64,000 nucleotides of DNA, from NCBI GenBank assembly GCA_945861875.1, contig CAMAWC010000008.1:4766-68765 (forward strand). The letters are read 5' to 3'. Numbering within the stretch: the first letter of the stretch is position 1; each line of letters starts with the position of its first letter. This document shows positions 3,001 to 31,427 of the stretch, in pieces. The stretch comes from Bordetella parapertussis (GTDB lineage: Bacteria; Pseudomonadota; Gammaproteobacteria; Burkholderiales; SG8-39). The translations under genes were made by a program, and so were the position numbers. A model generated the notes under the pieces. It made no database searches. It saw only the letters and a program-made list of their open reading frames with translations, and was not told the origin of the DNA.

Positions 3001-5083
3001 TCGTGCCGCGCACCTGTGCCAGGCTGACCAGCTTGTACTGAAAACTGTCGGTTCCCGTCTGTCCGACAGTGGGCGTATAGGTGAATGACCCGTCGGAATT
3101 CATCACCGCCGTACCCTTGGTCGGGTTGGTGAGCAGGGTGGTGCTAACCGACAGCCCGGGGCTGTCGAGGTCGAAATCATTTGCCGCGGGATCGACGTTG
3201 GCAAGCACCGTACCGGTCAGCGTGCCTATGGTCGAGGTGGAATAGTTGTGCGCCACCGTCGTAACCGGGTCATCGACCGCGACGACACTGACAAAGGAAT
3301 TGACTGCGACGCTCTGCTCGGTGCCCGCATCGGTCACGCGGATGCTGATGGAGCGCAGTGTCTGGTCGGGCGTATCCGTGGAATTGCTGAAGCCGATAGC
3401 CTGCAGCGCCGTGGCGTAGGTCGCCGCAGAGGCCGTCCCCGACAGCGTCACCGTGTTGGGGACAGACAAATCAGCCGTGATCCCGACCGGCAACGAGCCG
3501 ACGATGCTCAGCACATCTCCAGCCTTCGAATTGGTCAGCGTGATCGTCGCGCTGGTCAACTGCTGCCCGGGATCGGCGTCCGTAATCAGCGCCGCCCCGC
3601 CGACAATCGGCGTCGCCACGCCGGCATTCTCGGTAAAGGTGCTGTAGTAATTACTGCCGGTGGCGGCGATATTTACGTTGTCAAAGTAGAACTGCTGTGT
3701 CGTCCCGGTGGCAAATCCGGATTTCACGCTCAGGCGGATGACCGTGTTGTCGGAAATGTAATTGGAGATATCGAAACTGACCGTCGTATTGGTCGTGACA
3801 TTGGCCAGCGTGCTGATCGAGAAAAAATTCGCCCCGGCATTTTGCGAAACCTCAACCTGGATTTTGTCGCCGGCGGCGAGACCCGCGGTGCGATAGTCGA
3901 ACGACAGGATGGCCGAGGTATAGGCCTGCAGGTTGACCGCCCGGCTGATGTTGTCGAGGAATTGCGCCCCGTGACCAAGGAAAACCATTTCCTGTTGGCC
4001 GCCCAAAGCACCGACGACGCTGGCCTCGACGATGTTGCCCGAAGCCGGGCTGTTGTCGCTGTTGCTGCCGCCCACGTTGTAGGCGCGCGTCGGTGAAGCA
4101 TCGAACTCAACCCAGCCCGAGAGCCAGTTGGAGCCGCCGGCGTAAGTCTGTGACGAGAAATTATCTGAAATATTGAAGGTGCCGGGACCATTCAGGTCGA
4201 CTACCGGAGCTGCGAGCAGCGAGTTGAATGCCTCGAGGCCGACCCGGTCGGCAAACAGCCGTGTGGTGACCTGGCCCTGGTTGACCTCCAGCACCCAGTT
4301 TCCGCCCAGCGGGCCGGCACCGGTCGGGTCATTGGATGCGGCGACATCGGCACCGGTCAGGGACGATAGTTGCGCGAGCAGTGCCGTGCCTTGGGAACCT
4401 TCACCGGCGTCGCAACCGTAAATCAGGAAATCCGCGCCCGGCGAAAGGCTGGCTCGCCAACCGGCAACCTCCACGCTGTGTCCCGCAAGGGACTGCAGCG
4501 ACAAGGCGCCATCGCCCAAGGTAACGCTGCCGGGCACGCCGTGACTGACCAGGTGAATCGCCGCGATGTCGGTGCGCCCCGCGAGGGTTTCGGTGATTTG
4601 CGAGAAACCGTCGCGGGTCGGATCGATAATAATGACCTCAACGCCCGGGCGCGCGGCGTTGATCAGCTGTTGCATGCCGCGGATGCCGCCCTCGATGAAC
4701 AGCAGTTCCGCAGGGGCCGGCGCAATGGCGGCGGCCGGGTCGACCGAGGCCGCAAGCTGGGCGGCCGGGTCGGTAGCGTTGGCATCGCGCAGCGCCTGGG
4801 CGTCGGCGGCGGCTTTTTCAGTCACCGCACGGTCGCCGGCAGCCGGTCGGCTCCAGTCGGCCGGCGCGCTTAAGGGGTCTTTGCTGGCATCGCTTGCCGC
4901 GGCATCAGGGTTGGTGGCGGCCAGGGTTTTGTCGACGATATCGACCGCCAGCGCGCCGTCGAAAACGACGCGCGGCTCAAGCGCCAAAAAGCGCGTCTTC
5001 AGGCGCTTGGTTGGCGCCTTGCGTCGCACTTTTTTTGACGACTTTCCGACACTCGTGGTTGTCGGTTTGTCTTTATCTGCCAT
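1..5083 (-). CDS. Giant secreted adhesin-like repeat protein, N-terminal 1694 codons (C-terminus lies beyond the left window edge)
   Basis: My translation of the minus strand from ATG 5083-5081 stays open to position 1. The ORF is missing from the track because it has no stop in the window, and every listed minus-strand ORF here is in another frame. N-terminus is MADKDKPTTTSVGKSSKKVRRKAPTKRLKTRFLALEPRVVFDGA. A DUF4347-type head follows at about 4230-4710 (ELLFIEGGIRGMQQLINAARPGVEVIIIDPTRDGFSQITETLAGRTDIAAIHLVSHGVPGSVTLG). A PA14-like segment lies at about 2540-3010 (GNYTLYAGSDDGAILYVDGVAVVNNDGAHSYVE...FFEVGGQEDLIVSYSG). Repeated ~100-aa modules bounded by AVNDAP/ALNDAP carry W.YS.DGG..W motifs, as in cadherin-like T1SS adhesins. 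Confidence 0.85.
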   Translation of the reverse strand, partial: MADKDKPTTTSVGKSSKKVRRKAPTKRLKTRFLALEPRVVFDGALAVDIVDKTLAATNPDAAASDASKDPLSAPADWSRPAAGDRAVTEKAAADAQALRDANATDPAAQLAASVDPAAAIAPAPAELLFIEGGIRGMQQLINAARPGVEVIIIDPTRDGFSQITETLAGRTDIAAIHLVSHGVPGSVTLGDGALSLQSLAGHSVEVAGWRASLSPGADFLIYGCDAGEGSQGTALLAQLSSLTGADVAASNDPTGAGPLGGNWVLEVNQGQVTTRLFADRVGLEAFNSLLAAPVVDLNGPGTFNISDNFSSQTYAGGSNWLSGWVEFDASPTRAYNVGGSNSDNSPASGNIVEASVVGALGGQQEMVFLGHGAQFLDNISRAVNLQAYTSAILSFDYRTAGLAAGDKIQVEVSQNAGANFFSISTLANVTTNTTVSFDISNYISDNTVIRLSVKSGFATGTTQQFYFDNVNIAATGSNYYSTFTENAGVATPIVGGAALITDADPGQQLTSATITLTNSKAGDVLSIVGSLPVGITADLSVPNTVTLSGTASAATYATALQAIGFSNSTDTPDQTLRSISIRVTDAGTEQSVAVNSFVSVVAVDDPVTTVAHNYSTSTIGTLTGTVLANVDPAANDFDLDSPGLSVSTTLLTNPTKGTAVMNSDGSFTYTPTVGQTGTDSFQYKLVSLAQVRGTNYEYWSVTPPGWTATTGLAALAGNAIYTTLGQPVANGYLPTGYDVDKAAINYGNTGLDNFTVRFTNQLTVTTAGNYTLYAGSDDGAILYVDGVAVVNNDGAHSYVETAGAPVFLSAGTHTLVVDFFEVGGQEDLIVSYSGADTGNLKTNLNYVGGVLAPAYATGTVTINIQDAGPRLALGANLFASDDFSPQNYTGSDGSIGWKTNWTEAGDDASATAGKISVSAGGKLVIGDTSVTPTASVARTIDMLALAGSNPARVGTMLTLDYDATALTAGKVEIQMSQDNGVNWTTIGTLDSTTAVKVATGKQYDISNFAFDNAQLRFKVTQATAAAALVIDNVRIDTYTVNHSTAFTEGAGLATGTPVAIASATTAIADPTGDNISGATITIANAQAGDVLSAGTLPGSITASVSGNVLTLSGIGTRAEYSTALQQVFFSNTSQNPSTVSRTVNVVVRDITNIVSNTAVTTIAVTALNDAPDGANKAMTLVGTGTTYIIPASDFGFSDVDGNVLANVVFTTVPGSAGTLQRDTTGAGAWAAVTAGQTVTAADIAANRLRIITTGTGTAAFTFQVQDTGATGGGNVNLDPVANNFSVTVVATNTAPTLTSNPTLVPAGTEDLTSAGQSISAIVGPVFSDPGGTLSGVAIVGNTAIAGTQGVWQYSTDGASWNAVGTVADGATALALSAATQLRFVPVANYNGTPPALSIRAMDNIYSGAFTSGASRVNVTSTTNGGATPIAAAINTIGTSVTAVNDAPVLTPANPVMTPITEDNIATTGQTVASMLGASVTDVDATPVEGIAVVATGGSRGTWEYSIDGGTNWITVGGVSTSSALLLRDTDRIRFKPDAIDAGSGSLTYRAWDQTTGTFGTKVNPGVVGGTSAFSTAIDTVTIVTTAVNDAPAVTSGATLAYTEQATAAVIDGTITVADVDNATLTGGATVTISAGSFVAGDTLTWTNAGAVTGSYNAVTGVLTLIGTDTPANYEAVLRSVKFNSTSDDPTANNT

Positions 5084-5333
5084 TTCAACCCGTTAGTAAG
5101 TTTGTGCTACCCGAAATTATTTAATCTTTTCAGGTAGTTGGAATAACCCGTCGGTTATGAGTTCGCCTCTAACTGCCTATATAGCAATAGATGTGCCTGA
5201 ACTCTAATTTTACAACCTGCTAATCACTTCAAGCCGTGAAAAAGTACCGCTTGGTTAGCCGAGAAACCACACTTACCTTACCGCGCCGATGCACGCCTCC
5301 GACCGGCTTAACACCCTACCCTGAACCTATCGG

Positions 5334-7493
5334 CTAAAAACCACCCTCCCTGATAAAGATGGACACCGCGCGGAACAAAAAGTTCTGCGTAACCAGGGTC
5401 AGGTCGGTTTTGACACGCACCGTGCCGCGCACCATGAAATCGTCCGGATTGAAGGTCGTTTCGGGCCGTATGACCACGCGGTAAATGGCATTTTGCGCCG
5501 TCACCCCGGTGCGTTTATCCAGCACCGCCGGAATGCCCCCGCCATACGGTCCGGCCAGCAGCGTGCGCGTCACCTGCTTGTTGGCGGTGGTGTCAATGGA
5601 TATGACTTTGCCGGTAATCGCGGCCATACCCGCCACCTCGGGTATGAACTTGACCAACTGCCCCACCTCGACCGACTCGATTTGTGCGTCAGTGACAAAG
5701 GCCTCGACACTGGCCGCCCCGGGGGACACGATACGCATCATCAATTCACGCGAGCCTATCCAGCGGCCGGGCACAAGATCGGCGCGCAGGTCGCGCACCA
5801 GACCGGGTCCGGAAGCACGCACCACCAGCCGGCCTTTTTCCTCGACCACGGCTTGCAGTTCGGTTTCCGCCTCGGCCACCTGTCCGTCAAGGACCATCAG
5901 CCGCTCCTGTTGCGCGCGCGTGGCCGCCGCGCGCAGGTACTCGGCGCGGGCGGTGGCAAGGGACAGGTACGCGTTGCGTTCGCGCAAGACCAGTTCGGCC
6001 GAACTCATCCGTACCAGGGTTTGGCCCGCCTCCACGCGCTGCCCTGCGACCACCTCCACCGACAAAATTTGCCCTGAAGTGGGCACGAACACGGTTTGTT
6101 CGCGCTCGGCAATTAACACCGCCGGCGCGGTGACTTCATTGGCAACCGGCACCAGCCACACCAGCAGCAGCAGACTTGCGGCGAAAGTGGCTATCGCCCC
6201 CTTGTTGAAGTGCGTGAGTTGTCTGCGCGCCCACAAATACTTTGCCTCATTCACCACCGGCCTGATGATGAAAAAACCGAATTCAAGCACCATCAGCACT
6301 ATGCCGAGGAGCTTGAAAAAGGCGTGATACACCAACAGCGCTATACCAATGTAGACAACCAGCCGGTAGGCCCAGACGAATAGTGCAAACGTAACCATGG
6401 CACGGCGCTGGTTGTTGCTGAAGGTCGGTTCGGGCAGCGGCTCGCGCAGGCCGAAAAACTGGCGCCGCATCCACCAGCGCGCCACGGCAAAGCTGCGGTC
6501 GTGCAGGTTGGGAAAATCGAGAAAATCCGACAGTACGAAGTAACCGTCAAAGCGCATGAACGGGCTGGCGTTCACCGCCAGCGTCATCACCCAGGTGGTG
6601 GTGGCGAGAATGAAGAAAATGCTCTTCATCGCGCCCTCCGGGGTGATCACCCAGAGGAGCGTGGCAAAACAGGCCAGCGCCAATTCGGCCAGCACACCGG
6701 CCGAGGCGATGGCGATTTGTTTTTTCCGGTCGGCGAGCTTCCAGGTTTCGCTGGTGTCGGTATACAGGAAGGGCCACATCACGAGGAAAGCAAGTCCCAT
6801 TGCCGGTACGCGCACGCCGTAGCGTTTTGCCGTATAGGCGTGGGCGAATTCGTGTATCACCTTGGAGAACGACCCGGCGAGGAGGAAGTACAGGCCGCCC
6901 TGCAGGTTGAAAAAGAAGGTGAAGGTGCGCGTCAATTCGTCCCATTCGCGCGACACCAGGTAGATGTCGGCGCAAAAAACACCCAGCACAATAAACGCAA
7001 AGATGCGCGTATAGAACAATTCGGCGATCGGCAGCGTTCTTTCCAGGAACGCGTCGGGCCTTATCAACGGGATGCGGAAAAACAGGTAGTTGTGGAACAG
7101 CTGCTCGTACCAGGGGCGCTTGGCCGCCATCCAGCGCCGGCGCAACTCACCCAGCGCTTCCGCATCGCCGGGGACAATCAACTGGTTGTTGACGAGGAAA
7201 GAAATGAATCCGCCCACCTCCTCTTCGGTCGGGGAGATCGGCGTCTCGTCGATCACCGCATCGATCAGTTCCTCAACCGAGGGATGATCGGCCCAGCGTG
7301 CAAGCAACTCGAATTCGAGCAGGCCGATTTCGTAAAAGCGGTTGCGCACCGGATCGAGAATGCGCCAACTGGGCGACCCATCGCGGTGATGGGGCCCCGG
7401 ATGCAGCTTCAAGTCCTGACGAAGCTTGGGCAGCTTGACCGGCTTGGCTTTTTCTTCTGGTTTTGCAGAAACCACAAACACCTCCGCGACCAT
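5334..7493 (-). CDS. Fusion protein: PqqD-like N-terminal domain + peptidase M50 (site-2 protease) membrane core + HlyD/MFP-type periplasmic adaptor
   Basis: 719-aa ORF. S2P motifs HEFAH and NASPFMRFDG sit in a polytopic hydrophobic core. The C-terminal half has a lipoyl-like/coiled-coil/beta-barrel pattern (VFVPTSGQILSVEVVAGQRVEAGQTLVRM...GQLVKFIPE...GKVISID). N-terminal residues ~40-105 resemble a PqqD-type winged helix. Co-directional with the adhesin gene 250 bp downstream. Confidence 0.85.
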   Translation of the reverse strand: MVAEVFVVSAKPEEKAKPVKLPKLRQDLKLHPGPHHRDGSPSWRILDPVRNRFYEIGLLEFELLARWADHPSVEELIDAVIDETPISPTEEEVGGFISFLVNNQLIVPGDAEALGELRRRWMAAKRPWYEQLFHNYLFFRIPLIRPDAFLERTLPIAELFYTRIFAFIVLGVFCADIYLVSREWDELTRTFTFFFNLQGGLYFLLAGSFSKVIHEFAHAYTAKRYGVRVPAMGLAFLVMWPFLYTDTSETWKLADRKKQIAIASAGVLAELALACFATLLWVITPEGAMKSIFFILATTTWVMTLAVNASPFMRFDGYFVLSDFLDFPNLHDRSFAVARWWMRRQFFGLREPLPEPTFSNNQRRAMVTFALFVWAYRLVVYIGIALLVYHAFFKLLGIVLMVLEFGFFIIRPVVNEAKYLWARRQLTHFNKGAIATFAASLLLLVWLVPVANEVTAPAVLIAEREQTVFVPTSGQILSVEVVAGQRVEAGQTLVRMSSAELVLRERNAYLSLATARAEYLRAAATRAQQERLMVLDGQVAEAETELQAVVEEKGRLVVRASGPGLVRDLRADLVPGRWIGSRELMMRIVSPGAASVEAFVTDAQIESVEVGQLVKFIPEVAGMAAITGKVISIDTTANKQVTRTLLAGPYGGGIPAVLDKRTGVTAQNAIYRVVIRPETTFNPDDFMVRGTVRVKTDLTLVTQNFLFRAVSIFIREGGF

Positions 7494-7708
7494 TCGCCCG
7501 ATCGCGGTTCGCGTACGAATAGGGATGATCTATCTACGCTGCTGATTTTGCACTTTTTTCCGGGAAATTACCAGAAGATTACGGGAGGAATAGGGCAAAA
7601 CAAACACAAATACACAAGGCCGAATTTATTCCGTGCCTGGCAAAAAAAATATCACCAAAACCCGTTCGTGAGAGCCCGCCCCGGGATAGTAGGTCGTACC
7701 TCTAAAGC

Positions 7709-8476
7709 CTACTTTGCCGCGCGCTGTGTCGCGGCCAGGCCTTCGAGCGCCAGACCGTAGCCGAGCAGCTCGCTCATGCGCTTTTTGAGATCCTGCGTGA
7801 GCAGCACACGCGCATAGCGGCGCAGCAGCGGCGGGCGCTGCATCATCATGCGGGCATGTTCCCAGGCGCGCGCGAGCAGCTGCTCGCGCGGCAGCACCTC
7901 GTTCACCAAGCCGACATCCTTCGCTTCCTTCGATGACAGCACCTGTCCGGTGAGCAGGAAATAACGCCCGCGGTTGGCACCCATCAATAGCGGGAACACC
8001 ACGTGCACGCCATCGCCGGGCACCAGTCCACCGTTGAAATGCGCCGAATCCTGGAAAGTGGCCTCTTCGGCCGCCAGCACGATGTCGCACAACAAGGGGA
8101 TCTCGGCGTGACGCAATGCCGGCCCGTTGATGGCGGCAATCATCGGCACCTCGATGTTGAGCAGATTGCCCAGCAGGTGCTTGCCCTCCCAGTAGATCGC
8201 ATCCCACTGCTCGGCGCTCACCGGATCCTTGGCGTGGTTGTGTCCGCCGTGGGCGAGCTGCGGACCGCTGAAGGCATCGCCGGTGCCGGTGAGGATGATC
8301 ACGCCGTTTTCGCGGTCGCGGCCCACATCGAGAAACGCCTGTTCGAGCTGGCCATGCGGAATCAGGCTCCAGACCAGCGGCTTGCCGTCGGTGTGGACCT
8401 GCATTTCCAGGATGCCCTCCTCACGGCGCATCCGGATCATGCTGTATTTGTTGCGATACTCGTTGAACGACGACAT
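7709..8476 (-). CDS. Enoyl-CoA hydratase/isomerase (crotonase) family protein
   Basis: ORF 7709-8482. ATG at 8476 follows an AAGGGA RBS, while the track start at 8482 is TTG. Crotonase-like pattern VIILTGTGDAFSG...MIAAINGPA...EAKDVGLVNEVLP. Confidence 0.85.
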   Translation of the reverse strand: MSSFNEYRNKYSMIRMRREEGILEMQVHTDGKPLVWSLIPHGQLEQAFLDVGRDRENGVIILTGTGDAFSGPQLAHGGHNHAKDPVSAEQWDAIYWEGKHLLGNLLNIEVPMIAAINGPALRHAEIPLLCDIVLAAEEATFQDSAHFNGGLVPGDGVHVVFPLLMGANRGRYFLLTGQVLSSKEAKDVGLVNEVLPREQLLARAWEHARMMMQRPPLLRRYARVLLTQDLKKRMSELLGYGLALEGLAATQRAAK

Positions 8477-8486
8477 CGGCAATCCC

Positions 8487-9455
8487 TTATTCTATTTTTG
8501 CGCCCGAATCGCGCACCAGCTGACCCCAGCGCGCTTCCTCTTCCTTTAGCAACGCGGCAAACTCGGCGCGCGACATCCCGCCGGGCTCCAGCGACTGCGC
8601 AGTGATGAACTTGGCGCGATAGCCCGGGTCGGCCAGTATCTTCACCACATCGGCGTGGATTTTTGTCAGTACCGGCTCGGGCGTGCCGGCGGTTGCGGCC
8701 AGGCCGAACCACACGCTGGCCGAATAGCCGGGCACGCCGGCTTCGGCAACGGTGGGCAGGTCCGGGCGCAAGGACAGGCGCTTTTCGGTGGTCGTGGCCA
8801 GCACCTTGAGCTTGCCGGCCTTCTCGTGCTGCTCGAACACACTCAAGGTCACGATCAGCATCGACAACTGCCCGCTCAGTATGTCGGTAACCGCCGCGGC
8901 CGAACCCTTGTACGGCACGTGCAGGATGTCCACCCCGGCCATGCGCTTGAACTGCTCGGTGATCACATGCGGGTAGGAACCGCTGCCAAAGGACGCGTAG
9001 CTCAGCTTGCCCGGGTTGGCCTTGGCGTAGGCGAGCAGCTCGCGCAAGTTGCTCGCCGGCACCGCGTTGGACAGCGCCAGCACCGGCGCGAGCTTCACCA
9101 CCACCGTGATCGGCGCGAGATCGGTCAGCGGCTTGTAGGTCATATTGGAATACAGGTGCTGATTAATGACGAAGGCCGCGCTGTCGGAGAACAGCATGGT
9201 GTAGCCGTCGGGCGCGGCCTTGGCCACGGCGTTTGCGCCTATCATGGTCGAGCCGCCGGGGCGGTTCTCCACCACCACTTGCTGGCCCCAGACTTCCGAG
9301 AGCTGGTGTGCCAGGCCGCGCGCCACCGCGTCGGTGCCGCCGCCTGCGGTGTACGGAACGATGATGCGCACAGGCTTGGTCGGCCAGCTTTGCGCCATGG
9401 CTGTTGCGCAGGTGAGCGCGATGCACAAGCCCAACAGGGCGGAGATGCGTTTCAT
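8487..9455 (-). CDS. Bug-family (TctC-like) tripartite tricarboxylate transporter periplasmic substrate-binding protein
   Basis: Internal start MKRISALLGLCIALTCATAMAQSWPTKPVRIIVPYTAGGGTD (signal peptide plus the Bug N-terminal signature), preceded by an AAAGGAGG RBS. The longer track ORF to 9743 is an Arg-rich artefact. Confidence 0.9.
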   Translation of the reverse strand: MKRISALLGLCIALTCATAMAQSWPTKPVRIIVPYTAGGGTDAVARGLAHQLSEVWGQQVVVENRPGGSTMIGANAVAKAAPDGYTMLFSDSAAFVINQHLYSNMTYKPLTDLAPITVVVKLAPVLALSNAVPASNLRELLAYAKANPGKLSYASFGSGSYPHVITEQFKRMAGVDILHVPYKGSAAAVTDILSGQLSMLIVTLSVFEQHEKAGKLKVLATTTEKRLSLRPDLPTVAEAGVPGYSASVWFGLAATAGTPEPVLTKIHADVVKILADPGYRAKFITAQSLEPGGMSRAEFAALLKEEEARWGQLVRDSGAKIE

Positions 9456-9484
9456 GTTGCCTCCTTTATTTTTGTATCGCGACC

Positions 9485-10393
9485 TTAGCCTGCGAATTCG
9501 GGCTCGGGCAAACCCTTCACGCCGGGCCGCACCGCCAGCAGGCAACCGCTGAGCGGTTGCTGCGCCAGTTCGCGCTCGGGCATGCGCCGCGTCGCGGTGG
9601 TGATGTACAGGATGTCCAGATCCTTGCCGCCGAAGGCGAGGCTGGTCGGACGACGCACCGGCAGGTTGATCACCATGTCGACGCGGCCGCGCGGATCGTG
9701 CCGCGTCACGCACCAGCCGTCGATATTCGCGCTCCAGAAGCAACCGTCGGCGTCAACCGTCGAGCCATCGCAGATGCCGCGGCCCACCGGTATCTCGGTG
9801 AACAGGCGCCGGTTGTGGACATTGCCCGAGGTGTCGTCATAGTCGAACACGTCGATGCGGTAGCTGAATGAATCGCTGAAATACATCAGGCGATTGTCCG
9901 GGCTGAACGACAGTCCGTTGTTGCAGGTGACCCCGTCCATGAACTGGTGCACCGACAGGTCCGCATCCAGGCGCCACATGCGTCCGCGCGGCGTATACGG
10001 GGCGGCCTGCACAGTGCCGGTGAAAAAACGTCCCGCGCGGCACACCTTGCCGTCGTTGAAGCGATTGCCCGGCCGGTCGGTTTCGGGCTGCACCAGCACG
10101 GTCAGCTTGCCGCTGGCCGCATCGAAGGTATAGAGCCCCGAGCGCATGCCGACAATCAGCCCGCCCTTGGCGCGCAAGCCGATAGAGCCGACTTCCTCCT
10201 CGAACGGCCAGCTGGTTTTCTTGTTGGTCGACGGATCGAGGCGATGGATCTTCTGGCCCATGCCATCGACCCACCACAGCAGCTGCGCCTTGGCGTCCCA
10301 GATGGCCGACTCGCCGAGAATGTCCTTGCTTGCGTCGATCACCTCGATCTGCGGCGAAACCATGTCTATGGCACGGGTTCTTGCGGTCTGCAC
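9485..10393 (-). CDS. SMP-30/gluconolactonase/LRE family protein
   Basis: 302-aa ORF with a GTG start 9 nt after AAGGAG. Motifs GESAIWD...LWWVD...NRFNDGKVCRAGRFF...NGLSFSPD are typical of regucalcin-type lactonases. Confidence 0.85.
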   Translation of the reverse strand: MQTARTRAIDMVSPQIEVIDASKDILGESAIWDAKAQLLWWVDGMGQKIHRLDPSTNKKTSWPFEEEVGSIGLRAKGGLIVGMRSGLYTFDAASGKLTVLVQPETDRPGNRFNDGKVCRAGRFFTGTVQAAPYTPRGRMWRLDADLSVHQFMDGVTCNNGLSFSPDNRLMYFSDSFSYRIDVFDYDDTSGNVHNRRLFTEIPVGRGICDGSTVDADGCFWSANIDGWCVTRHDPRGRVDMVINLPVRRPTSLAFGGKDLDILYITTATRRMPERELAQQPLSGCLLAVRPGVKGLPEPEFAG

Positions 10394-13337: not shown

Positions 13338-14342
13338 TCAGTCAGCTTTGATATTGGCCTGCCTGATCACATCGCGCCACTTGGCAATCTCGGATTTGAT
13401 AAAGGCCGCGTACTCCTCCGGGCTGCTGCCCACCGGCTCGCTCGCCTGCGAGAGTATGCGTTCCTGTATTTCCGGTGTGGCGACGATACGCACCACGTCG
13501 GCCGATATTTTCCTGATCAACGCCGGGGGCGTCGCAGCAGGCGCCATGAAACCGAACCAGGCCGTGACCTCGAAGCCGCTGACACCCGCCTCCGACATGG
13601 TGGGAACATCCGGCGCCGATGCCGAGCGCTTGGTGCTGGTGATGGCGATGGGGCGCAGGGTGCCGGCCTTGATGTGCGGCAACAGCACCGGGGCGTTGTG
13701 GAACAACACCTCGATTTGCCCGCCAATCGCCTCGGTTGTCATTTGCGCGCTCGATTTGTACGGTATGCCGACCAGGTTGATGTCGGCCAAAGTATTGAGC
13801 AATTCACCCGACAGGTGCTGGGTGGTGCCGGCGCCAGCCGTGCCATAGCGCAGTTTGCCCGGCTCTTTTTTGGCCATGGCAATGAGCTCGGCCAGATTGC
13901 GGACCGGTAATTTTGGATTGACGGTCAGCAGATTGGGCATCTTGATCACAAGGCTGACCGGCGCGAGGTCCTTGACCGGATCGTAGGGCAGCTTGTCACC
14001 GAACAAGGTGACGTTGACCGCAATCGGCCCGATGGTGTTAAAGAGCAGCGTATAGCCGTCGGGCAGAGCCTTGGCGACGCGGTCGGTGCCGATGTTGCCC
14101 GACGCGCCGACGACGTTTTCAATCACCACCGGTTGGCCCCAGACATCCGAGAGTTTCTGGCCGATGACGCGCACAATGGTATCGGGGGCGCTGCCCGCCG
14201 GGGCCGGCACCACCACCCGCACCGGCTTGTCGGGCCAGGGACGCTGCTGCGCCTGCACTGTGGCCGCGCAAAGCATCAGCAGACTGCCGCCCAGAACCGC
14301 GACCAGTTGGGAATAAACGCCGCGCTGCAGGATGGTTTTCAT
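13338..14342 (-). CDS. Bug-family (TctC-like) periplasmic substrate-binding protein
   Basis: 334 aa. Signal peptide followed by QQRPWPDKPVRVVVPAPAGSAPD...VVIENVVGASG. Confidence 0.9.
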   Translation of the reverse strand: MKTILQRGVYSQLVAVLGGSLLMLCAATVQAQQRPWPDKPVRVVVPAPAGSAPDTIVRVIGQKLSDVWGQPVVIENVVGASGNIGTDRVAKALPDGYTLLFNTIGPIAVNVTLFGDKLPYDPVKDLAPVSLVIKMPNLLTVNPKLPVRNLAELIAMAKKEPGKLRYGTAGAGTTQHLSGELLNTLADINLVGIPYKSSAQMTTEAIGGQIEVLFHNAPVLLPHIKAGTLRPIAITSTKRSASAPDVPTMSEAGVSGFEVTAWFGFMAPAATPPALIRKISADVVRIVATPEIQERILSQASEPVGSSPEEYAAFIKSEIAKWRDVIRQANIKAD

Positions 14343-21264: not shown

Positions 21265-23336
21265 GCGGCCTCCTGTGTGAAGCGACGGCCGACGTGTATG
21301 CGTATCTCGCCGAGTCGTCCGATTTCAAAGCGGTCTGCCGGCCCGACGATGGTCGTCGAACCGTATTCCTCGATCACCGCGGGTCCGGTCGCGGCGAAAC
21401 CCGTAGGCAGCGTGTCGCGCGAATAGACCGCGGACTCGATCGATTTCTTTTCATCCGAGAAATAAACCTTGCGGGAACCGGCGGCCGGCTTGCCCTTGCC
21501 TTCGGGCTTCTTGAACACCAGTTCGAGATCCGGGTGCGGCGACTGCGCAAATGCCGACACGTGCACCGACACGATCTCGACCTGCGTGCCCTTGATCAGG
21601 TGTCCGTAGCGAACGACGTACTCGGCGTCGAAAGCCTTGCGCATCGCATCGGCGCCGCCTTCGTCCACCGGAACCCGCACGGTATGGAACTGCCCGACAT
21701 AGCGCATTTCCGCGTGGCGCTCAATCGTGACCGGCAGATCACCGAAATCCACGGCCAGCGACGCGCGCAGGCCGGCGGCCATTTCGTCGTAGACCGTCGC
21801 CATCGCATCCATCGCCTCCGTCTCGAGTCGCCTGACAAAAGTGCGCCCGTCGTCGCGCCGTATGTTCGTCAGCAGCATGCCGATGGCGGAGAAATTGCCC
21901 GGCTCGGGCGGGATCACCACCAGCGGAATGGCGAGTTCGCGCGCCAGTTCAACCGCATGCAGCGGACCGCCGCCACCGTAGGCGAAAAGCGCGAAGTCGC
22001 GTGGATCCTTGCCGCGTTCGACGGTGATGCGCTTGATCGCGCCACTCATCGTGACCACCGATATCGCGAGCACGCCGCTTGCGACCTCCAGCAACCCGTC
22101 CTCGCCGGCATAGCCGAGCGGTACCGCCAGGCGTTTTTCGATCGCGCCACGCGCCGCCGCGGCGTCCAGCGTCATCTCGCCGCCCTGGAAGCGGCCGGCA
22201 TTGAGGCGCCCGAGCACGAGGTTGGCGTCGGTGACCGTCGGTTCGGTGCCGCCGCGCGAATAGCAGACCGGCCCGGGCATCGAACCGGCGCTGCGCGGAC
22301 CGACGTGAAGTCGCGACTCCTGGTCCAGCCATGCGATCGAACCACCGCCGGCCCCGACTTCGACGATGTCGACCACCGGGGTGCGTATGGGAATGCCGCG
22401 GCCGTAACCGCCGACGTAATAAGTCGACACGACGTCGAATTTGCCTTCGCGCACCAGCGCGCACTTGGCGGTGGTGCCGCCCATGTCGAAGGCGATCAGG
22501 TTGGGGATGCCCAGCGCCTCGCCATAAACGCCGGCGCCGATGCAGCCACCGATGGGCCCGGACTCGACCAGCATGACGGGCGCGACCGAGGCGCGCTGTG
22601 GCGACAACATGCCGCCGTTGGAGCCCATGATCAGCAACTGTCCCTTGAAATCGCGTGCACCGAGGCTCGCGTCGAGCGACTTCACGTAGCCGCCGATTTT
22701 CGGCCCGGTATAGGCGTTCGCGGTCGCAGTCGTGGTGCGTTCGAACTCGTACCACTCGCGACTCAGCTCGGTGCCGCTGGTGACAAAACACCCAGGCAGC
22801 ATTTCGCGCAGCCAGCCGGCGACTTCGCGCTCGTTCGCAGGCTCGAGATAGGAATTGAGGAAGGACACCGCCACCGCGGTCACGCCCAGCGCGCGGATTT
22901 TTACGGCAAGCGCCTCGACCTCGGCGCGCACCGGCGCGTTCAGGATTTCGCCATAGCCATCGACCCGTTCGTCGACCTCGAAGCGCGCCTGGCGCGGCAC
23001 CAGCGCCGCGCTGCGGCGATAAAACAGGTCGAAGGGTTCGGTGCGGTTGCCGCGGCCGAGTTCGACGATGTCGCGGAACCCGCGCGTTGTCACCAGTGCA
23101 ATCGACGGCCCCGAACGCTCGATCAGCGTGTTGATGACCAGTGTGGTGCCGTGCTTGAACAAGGATGCCCGGTCCAGCGCGACCGCAGTCTTGTCGACGC
23201 AATCGAGTATGCCGTCGATGGGGTTGCCGTGCGTGGTCAGGCTCTTGGTGTAGCGGATGCTCTGCGTCGCCGGATCGAAGGCGACAAGGTCCGTGAACGT
23301 GCCGCCGGTATCGACGGCGATGAAACTTCCGGGCAT
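21261..23336 (-). CDS. Hydantoinase A/oxoprolinase family protein (HyuA-like subunit)
   Basis: Start MPGSFIAVDTGGTFTDLVAF at ATG 23336, after a GGAGAA RBS. The track ORF extends a further 26 codons upstream. ASKHA-fold motifs DTGGTFTD and FDMGGTTAK are present. Confidence 0.9.
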   Translation of the reverse strand: MPGSFIAVDTGGTFTDLVAFDPATQSIRYTKSLTTHGNPIDGILDCVDKTAVALDRASLFKHGTTLVINTLIERSGPSIALVTTRGFRDIVELGRGNRTEPFDLFYRRSAALVPRQARFEVDERVDGYGEILNAPVRAEVEALAVKIRALGVTAVAVSFLNSYLEPANEREVAGWLREMLPGCFVTSGTELSREWYEFERTTTATANAYTGPKIGGYVKSLDASLGARDFKGQLLIMGSNGGMLSPQRASVAPVMLVESGPIGGCIGAGVYGEALGIPNLIAFDMGGTTAKCALVREGKFDVVSTYYVGGYGRGIPIRTPVVDIVEVGAGGGSIAWLDQESRLHVGPRSAGSMPGPVCYSRGGTEPTVTDANLVLGRLNAGRFQGGEMTLDAAAARGAIEKRLAVPLGYAGEDGLLEVASGVLAISVVTMSGAIKRITVERGKDPRDFALFAYGGGGPLHAVELARELAIPLVVIPPEPGNFSAIGMLLTNIRRDDGRTFVRRLETEAMDAMATVYDEMAAGLRASLAVDFGDLPVTIERHAEMRYVGQFHTVRVPVDEGGADAMRKAFDAEYVVRYGHLIKGTQVEIVSVHVSAFAQSPHPDLELVFKKPEGKGKPAAGSRKVYFSDEKKSIESAVYSRDTLPTGFAATGPAVIEEYGSTTIVGPADRFEIGRLGEIRIHVGRRFTQEAA

Positions 23337-23490
23337 GGGTTTCTCCAGGCTTTCGCGAATGCTGCCGCCTCCTCCGGGATGCGGCCGAGGGAGGATTCTA
23401 TCCGCCGGATCCATAGCCGGCCATTACCTATTTGTTCTTGTCCTATAATCCCTGGCTATAGCCTTCCACGGATCGACAAGGACCCCGGCA

Positions 23491-24453
23491 ATGGACCTGA
23501 GACAGCTCCGCAACATCGTCGCAGTAGTCGAGCAGGGAAGCATCGCCAAGGCCGCCGTACACCTGCACATATCGCAACCGGCGATCACCAAGAGCATCCA
23601 GCGGCTGGAGGTGTTGCTCGACGTGCAGTTGTTCGACCGGAGTTCCCGCGGCATGGAACCGACCATCTACGCCCGGCGGCTGCGCACCTACGCGCTGATG
23701 ATCCATTCCGACCTGAAACGCGCCAATGCCGAAATCGCCGCACTCAAGAGCGGCGCCAGCGGCAGCATCCTCGTCGGCGTGCTTCCGCTGATCGGCAGCG
23801 ACATACTCGCCGAGTCCATCGCCACGCTGACACGGGACCATCCGGACATCCGGGTCCGCGTGGTGTCGGACATGAGCAACGAACTGGTCGCGGACCTCGC
23901 CAAGGGCGAATACGATTTTGTGCTGGGGATCGCCGGGGCGGAACTCGCAAGGCTGGGGCTGACGCAAAAAGTGCTCTTCCACGATCACCTCGTAGTGGTG
24001 ATGCGCAGCGGCCATCCACTCGCGCGACTGAAGAAGGTCGCACCGCGCGACCTCGTGGCGTGTCCCTGGGTACTGCCCGACCAGCACAGCGAGCACCGCA
24101 GGCGCATCGACGCTTTTTTCGAAGGCTCCAACCTCGCCCCGCCCTTTGCCGCGATAGAGAGCAACTCCGCCGCGTTTGTGAAGGAGTTGATCGCACGCAG
24201 CGACTACGTGGGCATCCTGCCGGCGAGTGCGGTCCGCGCGGAACAAAATACCGGGGCGCTGCGGATCATCGAGTTCCATTCTTCATTCACCACGCGCGCG
24301 ATCGGGTTGATCCGGCGCGGCAACAGCGAACCGTCGCCGGTCTGCGCGCTGCTGATGCAAAAACTGGAGCAACTCGCGGCGCAGCAGCCCATGGAAAAGG
24401 TGACACGGCGGCGCGCCCGGACGACAATGGCACGCGCAGGAGGTACCCGATGA
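23491..24453 (+). CDS. LysR-family transcriptional regulator, divergent from the catabolic cluster
   Basis: 320 aa with the N-terminal HTH MDLRQLRNIVAVVEQGSIAKAAVHLHISQPAITKSIQRLE. A TATAAT box lies at 23445-23450 in the 154-bp divergent spacer. Confidence 0.9.
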   Translation: MDLRQLRNIVAVVEQGSIAKAAVHLHISQPAITKSIQRLEVLLDVQLFDRSSRGMEPTIYARRLRTYALMIHSDLKRANAEIAALKSGASGSILVGVLPLIGSDILAESIATLTRDHPDIRVRVVSDMSNELVADLAKGEYDFVLGIAGAELARLGLTQKVLFHDHLVVVMRSGHPLARLKKVAPRDLVACPWVLPDQHSEHRRRIDAFFEGSNLAPPFAAIESNSAAFVKELIARSDYVGILPASAVRAEQNTGALRIIEFHSSFTTRAIGLIRRGNSEPSPVCALLMQKLEQLAAQQPMEKVTRRRARTTMARAGGTR

Positions 24454-24632
24454 CCAAGACCCTGGCTGTGGCGCCACGCCTTGCGGCGTCCTTGTGTGCG
24501 AACAGGGCAACAGATCAGCGGCGCTGATGTCTCCCTACCCAATCAGATCGGTCAGAAATTTACCAGCCAATTGATGGGTTTTTTGATGGGGATCTAACCG
24601 AACTGGCTGGAAACCCGCATGGATACTGGATT

Positions 24633-24669
24633 ACTGGCGTGCCAGAAGATATGCCAACACAAACCGTCT
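24633..24669 (+). repeat. Left copy of an imperfect ~37-bp direct repeat bracketing the TumE/TumA-like cassette
   Basis: ACTGGCGTGCCAGAAGATATGCCAACACAAACCGTCT here versus ACTGGCGGGCCAGAAGATACCAGATCACAAACCGCCT at 25598-25634. About 30 of 37 positions match by eye. Both copies begin with a CTGGC-NN-GCCAG mini-palindrome. Confidence 0.45.
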
Positions 24670-24731
24670 CTAAATCCTAAACTATGCGGTCTGTATAGTG
24701 TAATTCCCCAAAACGCTTTACTGTCAGTCGG

Positions 24732-25106
24732 TTAGCCAAGAGTTGCTACCATCTCAATCTTCGGCGCAATCGAGCGCACAACCTTTTGGATGCCGTGTCC
24801 TGGATTGGCCAGACGCTGGGATACGACAAGCCCAACTTTTTCCAGCAGACCTACATCCTTGGTGATTGCCGATCGGTTGCGATGCAGGCTTTGCGTTAGC
24901 TCGTTGATCGTCTTCGGCTCGTGCATAACCTCGAGCATGAGGCGACGACGTGCTTCCGACAGAACGGTGAACATCCGCTGTGGATCCTCGAAGGCTAGCG
25001 TGATCTTGCCATCGAAGGTATGGCCGCGATCAGCACGGCGAGCAGCATCTTTCGCTCGGGCGAAGAAGCCGTCGACATCATCGGTGCGAATAACTACTTT
25101 GGTCAT
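24732..25106 (-). CDS. Winged-helix (MarR/HVO_A0114-like) DNA-binding protein, putative antitoxin (TumA-like)
   Basis: 124 aa. LSEARRRLMLEVMHEPKTINELTQSLHRNRSAITKDVGLLEKVGLV is a wHTH. The start overlaps the upstream stop as ATGA. Confidence 0.6.
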   Translation of the reverse strand: MTKVVIRTDDVDGFFARAKDAARRADRGHTFDGKITLAFEDPQRMFTVLSEARRRLMLEVMHEPKTINELTQSLHRNRSAITKDVGLLEKVGLVVSQRLANPGHGIQKVVRSIAPKIEMVATLG

Positions 25107-25435
25107 GACTTTTTGCCTCCTGCCGATTTAACGATTTCCAACCATTCCCGCTGAAACCGCTCCTGCGTTGCTTCAAAACTGTTGAACTCGACTTCCTCGA
25201 CCTTGCCCATGGAATGGCGATGGTGGTAACCATGTGCATTATCGAAGCCAAGAACCCGTCCGTTGTCCCCGCGATAGATGGCATGGTTGATGTACGCCAG
25301 GTTGTAGCGGGTCACAATGGTCTTTCCGCGTTCCTGATATCCCCAAACCTCATAGCTCAGCAATCCCCCGCCGGATTTTGGCTTCAGTTCGAAGCGCTCT
25401 TGTTCGAGCAGGGATTCTTTGGGCAGTTTGACCAT
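25103..25435 (-). CDS. DUF6516/TumE-like putative toxin
   Basis: Contains YRGDNGRVLGFDNAHGYHHRH, which I recall as the signature of the DUF6516/TumE family. ATG at 25435 (MVKLPKE) is preferred because an operator-like inverted repeat and a -10 box lie at 25450-25476. The track ORF starts at GTG 25471. Confidence 0.55.
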   Translation of the reverse strand: MVKLPKESLLEQERFELKPKSGGGLLSYEVWGYQERGKTIVTRYNLAYINHAIYRGDNGRVLGFDNAHGYHHRHSMGKVEEVEFNSFEATQERFQREWLEIVKSAGGKKS

Positions 25436-25449
25436 GAGATGTGATGCAT

Positions 25450-25500
25450 CAGATGTGCCGTACAATAGCACATCTGAGCAGGCAAGTCAGGCTGATGATC
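25450..25500 (-). promoter_or_regulatory. Candidate sigma70 promoter with overlapping operator for the TA pair
   Basis: The minus strand reads CTGACT-N17-TATTGT. A 9-bp perfect inverted repeat CAGATGTGC-N9-GCACATCTG (25450-25476) brackets the -10 box. This geometry is typical of antitoxin autoregulation. Confidence 0.3.
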
Positions 25501-25525
25501 GAGGCTTTAAGGCCAAAACAATCAC

Positions 25526-25590
25526 TTAAGGAAGCTCTGATTAAGTCCATAAATCGTCATTCCCGCGGACTTAATCAGAGCTTCCTTAAA
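25526..25590. repeat. 23-bp perfect inverted repeat (TTAAGGAAGCTCTGATTAAGTCC / GGACTTAATCAGAGCTTCCTTAA) with a 19-nt loop
   Basis: Read directly from the sequence. On the minus strand it is followed by GTGATTGTTTTGG, so it may terminate or insulate the DUF1330/hydrolase transcript ahead of the TA promoter. The structure is certain; the function is not. Confidence 0.5.
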
Positions 25591-25597
25591 GTACTTG

Positions 25598-25634
25598 ACT
25601 GGCGGGCCAGAAGATACCAGATCACAAACCGCCT
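25598..25634 (+). repeat. Right copy of the imperfect ~37-bp direct repeat bracketing the TA cassette
   Basis: See 24633-24669. Confidence 0.45.
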
Positions 25635-25742
25635 AAGTTTTCCAAGGGCAAGCAAATCAAGCACCTGGGGTTCAGTTCATCGTTCTAAATATCGGGACAG
25701 CCAGTTCGACAAGACTTGAAAGAAAGCGAGGTTGACTTGGCC

Positions 25743-26084
25743 TCAATCAAGTACCGGCGGCATAAATCCTTGGACGATAACGATCTGAAACTTCGCCACC
25801 CCAGCTCGCAGAGCAATGGCCTCCTGGTAGCCTGGTGAGTTAAAGCAGTCCTGCGCCACCTTGTAACTTGGGAACTCGATGAGATAGGGCCGACCTGTCA
25901 CCGCCCCTTCAACGACCACCGCCACATCGCCCCTAGCGAGTACACGGCCGCCGTGGGATGCGATAAGCGGACCCGCCACAGAGGTGTATTGACCAAACCT
26001 CGAAGGTTCGTTGATTTCGGCCAGAACGATCCAGTAACCTTTGGCCGCGTTGGTTTGTGAATTGTTGGAATTTGATTGTGTCAT
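25743..26084 (-). CDS. DUF1330 domain-containing protein
   Basis: 113 aa. GYWIVLAEINEPSRFGQY...GGRVLARG...VVEG...RPYLIEFPSYKVAQDCFNSPGYQEA matches the DUF1330 (dimeric alpha-beta barrel) pattern. Confidence 0.8.
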   Translation of the reverse strand: MTQSNSNNSQTNAAKGYWIVLAEINEPSRFGQYTSVAGPLIASHGGRVLARGDVAVVVEGAVTGRPYLIEFPSYKVAQDCFNSPGYQEAIALRAGVAKFQIVIVQGFMPPVLD

Positions 26085-26188
26085 GTTGTATTTTTTTAGG
26101 TGGTCTTACTGATCCTGTAAGCGGTTGCTTCAAGTTGTGAAAGTCAAGTTAGGCTTCAAAGCCAAAGCATTACCGACTCGTCATGGCC

Positions 26189-27385: not shown

Positions 27386-27442
27386 GACAGGGTTCCTTCG
27401 AGCGAGGGTGTTCTTAAAAATTAATTGGTTTTTTCTAACCCG

Positions 27443-28321
27443 TTAGGCCTCCCATTGCGCTTTCATCTCGGAAGCAAAGTCTGCATATGAACGCGGCCTC
27501 CGACCCAAGAGTTCAGTCATCTTGTCCACATCTGCAGAAGTTGCAACCATGCCGTCCGAGCAAAAGCGATCAAGCATCAGTCGCATGTCCATCGCCATCC
27601 AACTTGGGGCGTGTTGGGCCAACCTCGCCTCGAATGGCGCCGTATCACTCCCCGTGTAGGTAACTTGTTTATTCAGCGTCGCTGACCAAATCTTTGCGAT
27701 ACTGGGTCCGGTGAGTGCATCTGGACCAATTAGGTTGATGATCTCGTTAGGCAATGTTTGAGACGAACGTTCACGTTTCAACACAGCCTGCGCTGCAATT
27801 TCGCCAATGTCGCGCACATCTACCATAGAAACACCCTTATCGCCAATCGGAAAGGGGTACAGGCCAGGACCCATCAACGCATCCTTGAAATACGCGGCAT
27901 CGTTCTGCATGAAGCAGTTGGGGCGCAGGATGGTGGCAGGTATTCCCGCTTGCGCAATCATCCGTTCGACGGCGTACTTGGATGTGAAGTGCGGTACGTC
28001 GGTGAACGACTCAGCATTGAAAACTGAAAAATAGACAAGGCGCTCGATGCCGGCTTCGCGCGCCAGGTTGAGCGTGAGTACCGCTTCGGTCAACTCTTGG
28101 GTTGATACAGCATTGAGCAAGAACAGCGTGTTCACCCCTTTAAGGGCTTTGCGCATGGAATCCACATCCAGCATGTCACCTGCCACAGCTGTAACTCCGT
28201 TTGGAAATTTAGCCTTGCTCGGGTCACGCGTCAGGGCGTTCACAGCCACATGGTGACTCGCAAGTTGTTGTACCAGTGACGTGCCAATGGTTCCGGTCGC
28301 GCCTGTGATGAGTATGGTCAT
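27443..28321 (-). CDS. NmrA-family NAD(P)-binding protein
   Basis: Start MTILITGATGTIGTSLVQQL at ATG 28321, after an AAGGAAA RBS. The track ORF has 24 extra N-terminal codons. Confidence 0.85.
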   Translation of the reverse strand: MTILITGATGTIGTSLVQQLASHHVAVNALTRDPSKAKFPNGVTAVAGDMLDVDSMRKALKGVNTLFLLNAVSTQELTEAVLTLNLAREAGIERLVYFSVFNAESFTDVPHFTSKYAVERMIAQAGIPATILRPNCFMQNDAAYFKDALMGPGLYPFPIGDKGVSMVDVRDIGEIAAQAVLKRERSSQTLPNEIINLIGPDALTGPSIAKIWSATLNKQVTYTGSDTAPFEARLAQHAPSWMAMDMRLMLDRFCSDGMVATSADVDKMTELLGRRPRSYADFASEMKAQWEA

Positions 28322-28440
28322 GTCGTTTTCCTTTTCGATATTCAGCGCAGGAGAAACCTGAACGCTGAAAGAATGATAGTGTGAAAAAATCACAACGACA
28401 CACCTGAAAATAAGACGATCCGTCCCAAATATGGAACCTT

Positions 28441-31403: not shown

Positions 31404-31427
31404 TAAAAAACCCGCCGAAGCGGGTTA
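31404..31427 (-). terminator. Rho-independent terminator after the RelE-like gene
   Basis: The minus strand reads TAA-CCCGCTTCGGCGGG-TTTTTT immediately at the stop codon. Confidence 0.65.

Follow-up and report, generated by a model that had tools for sequence, protein, structure and literature searches.

A conserved fusion of an RRE-like domain, an M50 membrane protease core and an HlyD-type adaptor encoded beside a giant adhesin gene: a candidate subunit of an apparently uncharacterised export system

We analyzed a stretch of 64,000 nucleotides from Bordetella parapertussis (contig CAMAWC010000008.1 of assembly GCA_945861875.1, positions 4,766 to 68,765; this whole stretch is called the window below). 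A gene near its left end encodes a protein of 719 amino acids (aa) that combines three parts: a domain with the PqqD-like fold of recognition elements (RRE) for peptides synthesized by ribosomes and modified after translation (RiPPs), a membrane core of the M50 or site-2 protease (S2P) type with seven transmembrane (TM) helices, and a C-terminal domain of the membrane fusion protein (MFP) or HlyD type. The TAG stop codon of this open reading frame (ORF) is at 5334-5336, and the ORF of a giant adhesin-like protein starts at 5083. The features of the locus are listed here.

5334..7493, minus strand: RRE-M50-MFP fusion gene, 719 aa (ORF and translation, Pfam and NCBIfam matches, AlphaFold model)
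7188..7409, minus strand: predicted cytoplasmic RRE/PqqD-like winged-helix domain, residues 29-102 (AlphaFold domain model, Foldseek)
6153..7058, minus strand: polytopic M50 (S2P-type) membrane core, residues 146-447, with about seven TM helices (Pfam, DSSP helices, hydropathy)
6840..6854, minus strand: HEFAH zinc-binding and catalytic motif, H214, E215 and H218 (translation, homologue alignment)
6543..6572, minus strand: NASPFMRFDG, which corresponds to the second S2P motif (NxxPxxxxDG) and in which D316 is presumed to be the third zinc ligand (translation, homologue alignment)
5403..6137, minus strand: periplasmic HlyD/MFP domain, residues 453-697, with lipoyl part, alpha-hairpin (499-554) and beta-barrel (Pfam, PDB profiles, Foldseek)
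5084..5333, minus strand: 250-bp spacer separating the fusion and giant genes, AT-richer than the genome
2..5083, minus strand: giant adhesin-like protein, first 1,694 residues, presumed substrate; the gene continues past the left window end (translation, Pfam)
4988..5044, minus strand: basic N-terminal stretch of the giant, residues 14-32, KSSKKVRRKAPTKRLKTRF (translation)
4952..4987, minus strand: leader-like motif LALEPRVVFDGA, giant residues 33-44, presumed RRE ligand (conservation in linked giants)
4214..4705, minus strand: DUF4347 domain of the giant, residues 127-290 (Pfam, E 3.6e-51), with a conserved SHG ... YGCD His/Cys pair

An earlier note, made from the letters of this DNA, had read the first gene as a three-domain fusion that lies 250 bp upstream of a co-directional giant ORF with DUF4347, PA14 and cadherin-like domains, and had described the genes on its other side as unrelated. 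Translation, profile searches and a fold search bore out the fusion, the sequence itself the gap and the shared minus strand, and Pfam the nature of the giant. The genes upstream of the fusion, for an enoyl-CoA hydratase (ECH), TctC receptors, a gluconolactonase-like (SGL) protein and a thiamine pyrophosphate (TPP) enzyme, are indeed unrelated to it. The AlphaFold model of the whole protein had a pLDDT of 78. More than 4,000 homologues of ~700-725 aa share the architecture, with at least 586 confirmed matches in species-representative genomes. The RRE and M50 parts alone retrieved 10,875 representative clusters, 2,359 of them at E≤1e-30, and the length was ~700-725 aa in nearly all of the best 150 of these 10,875 representative relatives. 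An artefactual or chance fusion was ruled out, since length and architecture are kept across thousands of homologues. By profile and fold the protein is a member of the Peptidase M50 and MFP families, and it is RRE-like by fold only.

The N-terminal domain was also modeled separately (residues 20-130, pLDDT 86.4). The model had a beta3-alpha3 topology, with strands at residues 10-13, 24-28 and 33-37 of the fragment followed by helices at 39-46, 54-64 and 71-83 (protein residues 29-102), which is the order of three strands and three helices of a winged helix. The top 10 matches of this model in a Foldseek search of the Protein Data Bank (PDB) were all RREs, followed by a clear drop to noise. 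The best match was TbiB1 (5v1v; E 7.5e-3, TM-score 0.71, probability 1.0), and TfuB1, CteB and TglHI were matched as well; the structures of TbiB1 and TfuB1 are those with a bound leader peptide. A Pfam scan of the full 719-aa protein gave no PqqD match at E≤1, and a PDB profile search with the N-terminal domain returned no PqqD structure. When the isolated domain was compared with Pfam, PqqD (PF05402) was the sole match, at a sub-threshold score (E 0.15; 12.8 bits vs a cutoff of 23.4). The fusions of a sister family, described below, scored 25.8 to 27.8 bits against the same cutoff of 23.4 and thus pass it. Across homologues the domain carries a near-invariant motif, DGSPxW..DP.RN.F..IG..EFE. 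The predicted fold and the sister family support the PqqD/RRE-like character that the earlier note had ascribed to this region, even though the window protein's own profile score is sub-threshold, and on the strength of the model we regard the N-terminal domain as RRE/PqqD-like.

In the membrane core, Pfam Peptidase_M50 (PF02163) matched residues 202-311 with 35.9 bits (cutoff 27.2; E 6.3e-9). HEFAH (residues 214-218) lies inside the predicted helix 197-224, and NASPFMRFDG spans residues 308-317. Residues H214, E215, H218, N308, P311, D316 and G317 were unchanged in all 194 aligned homologues, and the sole PDB sequences that aligned to the core were MjS2P and RseP, at the HExxH helix. The catalytic motifs are intact, as had been noted. 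The Pfam scan of the fusion protein showed no PDZ domain. RseP and SpoIVFB cleave membrane regulators, and the M50 core could likewise cleave an anti-sigma factor or another membrane regulator of adhesin expression; the best alignment of its HExxH helix, to MjS2P and RseP, would fit such a role. We consider this very improbable, however, as the neighborhood shows no conserved gene for a sigma or anti-sigma factor, a PDZ domain was not detected, and neither the fusion to an RRE and an MFP nor the operon of TolC-like and MFP genes described below would have a role in it. RseP also degrades remnant signal peptides.

The C-terminal region was matched by Pfam HlyD_3 (52.7 bits) and HlyD_D23 (47.9 bits) over residues 464-645, and PDB profiles of the domain matched EmrA, MacA and HlyD. 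A Foldseek search with the whole-protein model gave Spr0693, MacA, EmrA, MexA and AcrA with E-values of 1e-14 to 1e-10. The alpha-hairpin comes after the TM helix at 431-447, as in the MFP fold. Both the Pfam matches and the MacA/EmrA folds confirm that this is an HlyD/MFP adaptor region, as the earlier note had it. Because the helix positions in the model and the hydropathy fit, the protein probably has a seven-TM topology in which the RRE and both catalytic motifs face the cytoplasm and the MFP domain is periplasmic; in the predicted topology, HExxH and NxxPxxxxDG are located at cytoplasmic helix ends.

The giant carries Pfam domains DUF4347, Big_9, Cadherin_4/5 and PA14. On a metagenome contig that bears an identical fusion protein it exceeds 3,684 aa, and the giants linked to homologous fusions range from 600 to >4,400 aa. 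Every linked giant with a visible start has the N-terminal signature LALEPRxLFDGA after a basic stretch, with the pattern L-A-L-E-P-R-hydrophobic-hydrophobic-F-D-G-A. Among 25 distinct linked giants, the residues L, E, R and D of this leader were present in all 25 and F and G in 24, and the 25 residues ahead of it contained on average 6.0 lysines plus arginines vs 0.7 aspartates plus glutamates. The leader of the giant from Escherichia coli reads FALESRQLFDGA. An NCBIfam scan of the giants gave no match to the LEPR-XLL model, and the likeness to LEPR-XLL is one seen on visual reading of the sequences. In a reciprocal search, residues 1-300 of the giant in the window served as query, and leader-bearing DUF4347 proteins on long contigs were then looked up. 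All four substrate-side DUF4347 proteins with a LEPR-type N-terminal motif adjoined an M50-MFP gene and MFP genes.

DUF4347 usually follows the leader after a linker of 47-82 residues. Its His/Cys pattern in the giants of the window, of E. coli (L167/L169; loci are numbered with the prefix L) and of L007-L156 was IH(I/L)(V/L)SHG ... LL(I/L)YGCD, and in a few copies the His was replaced (GDG). We take this pair to resemble the catalytic dyad spacing of clan CD cysteine peptidases (caspase, CHAT and CPD types). If DUF4347 is clan CD-like, the giant could have a processing domain of its own right behind the leader. A search of DUF4347 against PDB profiles gave only another DUF4347 chain (9qpe_G) and ECT2L, which provided no functional label. 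The giants in 60 loci also have a common C-terminal motif, roughly SF(S/T)(E/D)QL(K/R)xA, located 25-40 residues from the end (for example at about 6650-6752 in L045 and 7300-7716 in L167), which might serve in secretion, anchoring or recognition. RTX repeats are missing from the giants, each of which has 0-1 matches to GGxGxD.

The length of the spacer between the two genes is kept at 217-250 bp in the relatives L007-L009, which have 61-77% protein identity, and its sequence is not kept. It showed no sigma-70 promoter consensus and no sequence conservation past the closest relative. The sole Rfam match in 4900-7900 was inside the fusion ORF, far below the gathering score. With no support from Rfam, from a promoter consensus or from wider conservation, an RNA element or small ORF in the spacer was dropped.

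We called and clustered ORFs in 86 loci, with ~10 kb on each side of the locus. Three neighbor families recurred, namely a TolC-like lipoprotein of ~630 aa, an MFP of ~270 aa and an MFP of ~450 aa. Together with the giant adhesin and the RRE-M50-MFP fusion they make up a conserved five-gene module, the genes of which abut or overlap. The partner MFP of ~450 aa consists of a cytoplasmic N-domain of ~180 aa, which had no match in a PDB profile search, and one TM helix ahead of its MFP part, and the fused TriA-TriB construct 6vej was among the partner-MFP matches. In 69 of the 80 genome loci, at least one partner gene was found by tblastn; 10 of the 11 partner-less loci were cut at a contig end, and the remaining one, L011, bears the leader, which the motif pattern had missed. 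In the window's clade the fusion gene is at the front, followed by the giant, TolC-like, MFP and MFP genes. The order fusion, giant, TolC-like was observed in L014, L019 and L021, and L118 shows the full series of five. When the TolC-like protein of this clade was used as seed, a metagenome scan recovered the giant, TolC-like, MFP and MFP genes, and then unrelated genes. In a more distant clade the order is giant, TolC-like, MFP, MFP, fusion.

Of the module, the window contains genes 1 and 2 only, and no homologues of the module's TolC-like protein or MFPs were found in its 64 kb outside the fusion ORF. Because the giant exceeds 3,684 aa on the metagenome contig, the remaining genes are expected at a distance of more than 11 kb to the left of the window. 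The earlier note had found neither an ABC exporter nor a TolC gene in this DNA. This holds for the window, where no ORF combines a Walker A with an LSGGQ motif and no TolC-like homologue was found, but as regards TolC it does not hold for the system: in relatives such as L118, the TolC-like gene lies downstream of the giant, which would be past the window's left edge. The linkage of homologues to giants and secretion genes, which the note had made a test of its proposal, turned out to be near-universal, with the TolC-like lipoprotein and two more MFPs as partners. The analysis covered all three results that the note had named as refuting its reading, and none of them was obtained.

Members of the Alpha-, Beta-, Gamma- and Deltaproteobacteria and of the Nitrospirae carry the module. 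An independent annotation, by the Prokaryotic Genome Annotation Pipeline (PGAP), has these five genes both in Azospirillum brasilense Sp7 and on IncF plasmids of E. coli. A full-text literature search, with subscription journals outside its coverage, found no published description of the fusion or the module. The conserved five-gene system is real and apparently uncharacterised. Genes for an AMP-ligase, a mechanosensitive channel, a serralysin-like RTX protease and histidine kinases were set aside as lineage-specific neighbors rather than module members, as were PLD, CMAS, CysS and GMC oxidoreductase genes. In Magnetospirillum (L172, 20719-21161), a gene with FtsK/HerA-type ATPase matches stands directly after the module, an arrangement seen in no other locus.

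Among 5,426 complete E. coli genomes, 24 carry the module, for the most part on IncF plasmids. On plasmid NZ_CP081687 (L167/L169) it occupies 44.8-64.6 kb between ISKpn26 and IS1, and on the chromosome of strain KMi029 (L170) it is flanked by IS1 and by Tn3/IS66 remnants. One E. coli chromosomal copy is located in an island at tRNA-Thr. Further carriers are Citrobacter plasmids and the chromid of Cupriavidus metallidurans CH34. Because it is bracketed by insertion sequences (IS) both on plasmids and on the chromosome of E. coli, the module is a mobile unit of five genes.

The best NCBIfam match of the fusion protein was daptide_HExxH (NF041824; E 1.1e-43), which covers residues 45-404 with 149.8 bits, below the equivalog cutoff of 300. 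The second was YydH/LiaK (E 8e-8), with 32.3 bits vs a cutoff of 225. The fusion protein is related to the daptide intramembrane metalloprotease family and is not a member of it. Since both best matches are RiPP proteases and the RRE fold is typical of RiPP pathways, the protein might cleave the leader of a small ribosomal peptide (RiPP or bacteriocin) whose gene lies elsewhere and export that peptide, with the giant as an incidental neighbor. We attach very little probability to this reading. Both scores are far under their cutoffs, no RiPP-modifying enzyme or extra gene is conserved near the fusion, the abutting or overlapping module genes leave no space for a precursor gene, and the linkage to leader-bearing giants is near-universal and reciprocal. 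The export of a peptide encoded elsewhere, one of two roles proposed by the earlier note, is disfavored because no further gene is conserved and the IS-flanked cassette moves in E. coli as five genes.

No energized inner-membrane partner for the MFPs (ABC, RND, MFS or PET) was conserved within the ~10 kb examined: an ORF with Walker A and LSGGQ was present in 4 of the 86 loci only, there was no conserved RND, MFS or PET gene, and the E. coli cassettes contain five genes only. In L174, one of the four loci from the reciprocal search, a gene for a SecA-like protein of ~650 aa was located between the fusion and MFP genes, and four more members of this sister type were then looked up (L175-L178). 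The order of the sister cluster is GAF-MFP, RRE-M50-MFP, SecA-like ATPase, MFP, DUF4347 giant (6402-20187 in L176, for example). The SecA-like gene directly follows the fusion gene in 5 of the 5 sampled loci and starts ~20 bp downstream of it in L176-L178. The MFP after it was called in four of the five loci, L175 being the exception. The GAF domain of the first MFP scored 23.1 bits vs a cutoff of 22.4. In most of these loci, genes for a PAS histidine kinase and a GGDEF-EAL protein follow the giant. Four of the five have no linked TolC-like gene, and L175 has an upstream OEP gene directly after an RND pump gene. The sister fusions have 719-738 aa (in L174 the gene is split by likely frameshifts), are 23-27% identical to the window protein and keep HEIAHG and NGNPLQRLDGYY.

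Pfam matches in the SecA-like protein of the sister type are to the DEAD motor, the preprotein-binding and the P-loop domains, with none to the SecA wing/scaffold domain. The family comprises at least 120 protein clusters, mostly from Burkholderiales, and PGAP labels some of its proteins 'prepilin peptidase' or 'DEAD/DEAH box helicase'. Two of the four giants from the reciprocal search carry the sister leader, which reads MEERILHSADL or MEPRLLLSADAL. The window type pairs the LALEPRxLFDGA leader with the DGSPSWR..DP.RN class of RRE, and the sister type pairs the MEERILHSADL leader with the RGETWYLL.D..GRSVRLN class. Judging from these motifs, the RRE class and the leader class change together, as a receptor-ligand pair would.

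These loci bear on the possibility that the fusion is an accessory to a type 1 system with an ABC transporter encoded elsewhere, to which the MFPs and the TolC-like protein would dock while the fusion trims the leader or clears a jammed substrate. The MFPs resemble the MacA, EmrA and HlyD adaptors, which always operate together with an energized inner-membrane transporter, and our inspection reached ~10 kb on each side of a locus. However, the scarcity of ABC-like ORFs near the module, the absence of RTX repeats from the giants, the movement of the IS-bracketed E. coli module between replicons without a transporter gene, and the recruitment of a SecA-like rather than an ABC ATPase by the sister system make this distinctly unlikely in our view.

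Another alternative is a tether-and-release device that follows the logic of LapG and LapD. The adhesin would be exported C-terminus first, its leader would stay clamped on the RRE, and a regulated cut by the M50 core would free the adhesin, until then threaded in the MFP/TolC duct and anchored to the cell. Several features would suit such a device: the C-terminal motif is placed like a type 1 secretion signal, the folded DUF4347 after its linker resembles a retention module, the cytoplasmic domain of one partner MFP is of a sensor type, namely GAF in the sister system, and besides the GGDEF-EAL and PAS-kinase genes at sister loci there is a PilZ gene at one locus of the window type. Nevertheless, no ABC exporter is at hand for export with the C-terminus first, the SecA-like motor of the sister system argues for transport with the N-terminus first, and the genes of cyclic di-GMP signaling are not conserved in the window's type. 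Neither a LapG-type cysteine protease nor LapD is among the five conserved module genes, the window itself not having been scanned with LapG or LapD profiles. We therefore judge tether-and-release to be unlikely. The earlier note had proposed a processing or release device for the adhesin as an alternative to LapG/LapD; a device that acts on the neighboring adhesin is favored, and the analogy to a leader peptidase or signal peptidase fits better than that to LapG/LapD.

With moderate confidence, and from sequences and predicted models, we favor the reading that the fusion is a subunit that recognizes and cleaves the leader and acts as an adaptor within a TolC-linked apparatus dedicated to export of the neighboring giant. 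The 719-aa protein would be an inner-membrane subunit of a five-gene, envelope-spanning apparatus. Its cytoplasmic RRE would bind the N-terminal leader of the giant, that is, the basic stretch and LALEPRxLFDGA, and the M50 active site, on the cytoplasmic surface of the membrane, would remove or clip the leader in the manner of RiPP M50 leader peptidases or of S2Ps that process signal peptides. The fused MFP and the two other MFPs would join the inner-membrane platform to the TolC-like duct, where the adhesin would exit. The energy would not come from a linked ABC, RND or MFS protein. The SecA-like ATPase of the sister system suggests a SecA-type drive with the N-terminus first, and in the window's type the drive might, speculatively, be the housekeeping SecA or an extracellular folding ratchet. 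We infer all of these steps, namely the binding of the leader by the RRE, its cleavage and the site of cleavage, the export route and the motor. There is precedent in that M50 proteases remove RiPP leaders, and EpeP has been proposed to cleave and export its product (PMC10885120).

Several observations weigh against the leader-peptidase and adaptor role. M50 enzymes usually cut hydrophobic TM segments, and the leader of the giant is not hydrophobic. The conserved C-terminal motif of the giants could be the recognized element instead of the leader, since RiPP M50 enzymes such as TglG and TmoG cut at C-termini (PMC10885120). The PqqD score of the window protein is sub-threshold, and the Foldseek E-values of its RRE model reach a modest 7.5e-3 for the best match. 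The window's type encodes no motor, and the ~10 kb per side that was examined leaves room for an unlinked ABC exporter. Furthermore, the rest of the module lies outside the window and is deduced from relatives at 46-77% identity.

A more far-reaching reading, which we hold to be less likely than not but to have a substantial chance, is that the module represents an undescribed, ABC-independent, one-step route by which giant adhesins are secreted and which is none of types 1 to 11, with the fusion as its core. The LEPR-type leader would be read by the RRE and the protein exported N-terminus first, with the M50 core as leader peptidase. The polypeptide would pass a platform of M50 cores and three adaptor paralogues into the TolC-like duct, driven by the dedicated truncated SecA paralogue in the sister system and, in the window's type, by housekeeping SecA or by a ratchet of extracellular folding.

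Comparison with known systems showed that the module works like a hybrid of type 1 adhesin secretion, peptidase-containing ABC transporters (PCATs) and RiPP leader peptidases, and is a member of none of them. As in the type 1 system LapA-LapBCE with LapG/LapD (and those of the SiiE and MpIBP types), a giant, repetitive adhesin of cadherin/Ig type is encoded beside a TolC-family protein and HlyD-type adaptors, has a folded N-terminal domain after a processing motif and is served by a dedicated protease. The module differs in having no linked ABC transporter, no RTX repeats in its giants and three adaptor paralogues instead of one. Its protease is of the intramembrane M50 kind and is fused with an adaptor and an RRE, where LapG is a periplasmic cysteine protease, and there is no LapD. 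The set of ABC transporter, MFP and TolC with a substrate that defines a type 1 system is incomplete here, since the ABC transporter is absent and the MFPs and the TolC-like protein are found in relatives, not in the window.

The module resembles PCATs such as the colicin V system CvaAB-TolC in that the leader would be cut by a protease domain within an inner-membrane export component that works with an MFP and TolC. In contrast to PCATs, it has an M50 metalloprotease instead of a C39 cysteine protease, recognition by an RRE, fusion to an MFP instead of an ABC transporter, and presumed substrates that are large proteins and not peptides, at 600 to >4,400 aa. With the M50 peptidases of RiPP pathways (NF041824, EpeP/YydH and TglG/TmoG), the N-domain and M50 core align over residues 45-404, but the fusion has an additional C-terminal MFP, and its partners are the giant, the TolC-like protein and MFPs rather than RiPP enzymes. 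It shares HExxH within a TM helix and NxxPxxxxDG with RseP, SpoIVFB and MjS2P; unlike these, it has no PDZ or CBS domain, it carries the RRE and the MFP, and its presumed substrate segment is no hydrophobic TM helix. Several MFP paralogues with one outer-membrane factor are also known from TriABC-OpmH, which has an RND engine, whereas the sole polytopic inner-membrane protein of the module is the M50 core. Finally, the sister system recalls accessory SecA2 export in having a dedicated, shortened SecA paralogue next to the substrate. This paralogue, however, is found in Proteobacteria and is coupled to the RRE-M50-MFP fusion and MFPs instead of SecY2/Asp proteins, and the window's own type lacks it.

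Giant adhesins drive biofilm formation and attachment to hosts and surfaces, and ABC-driven type 1 secretion is, to our knowledge, the sole established one-step route for them. In the module, a leader-recognition domain fused to an intramembrane protease stands where a known transporter would be. If the proposed export holds true, it would be a new way across both membranes, leader recognition of the RiPP style would act on proteins of thousands of residues, and both the LEPR-type N-terminal motif, which is common, and DUF4347 proteins would gain a function. The IS-flanked five-gene cassette of E. coli makes the system directly testable in a standard laboratory host.

Some observations were made elsewhere in the window. 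TctC genes (Bug-family tripartite tricarboxylate receptors) are grouped among the catabolic genes upstream of the fusion, for example at 8487-9743 and 13338-14342 and among the L001 neighbors. We take such clusters to be typical of Burkholderiales, which agrees with the closest relatives, metagenome-assembled genomes of that order. On the plus strand, 21294-24527 is an ORF of 1,077 aa without a Pfam match at E≤1e-4, which may be spurious at this GC content. The GC content is 0.51-0.58 in 24000-32600, compared with ~0.63 elsewhere. This stretch ends at a tRNA-Ser(gct) gene (32480-32572, minus strand) and carries LysR, NmrA-like and FrsA-like esterase genes, with no integrase seen in it; it may be an old island. 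Near the right end, the tmRNA gene at 60964-61333 (tag ANDERFALAA) is directly followed by a tyrosine integrase gene at 61430-62734, after which the GC content falls to 0.49-0.56 up to 64000. This looks like an ssrA-integrated element that passes the right end of the window.

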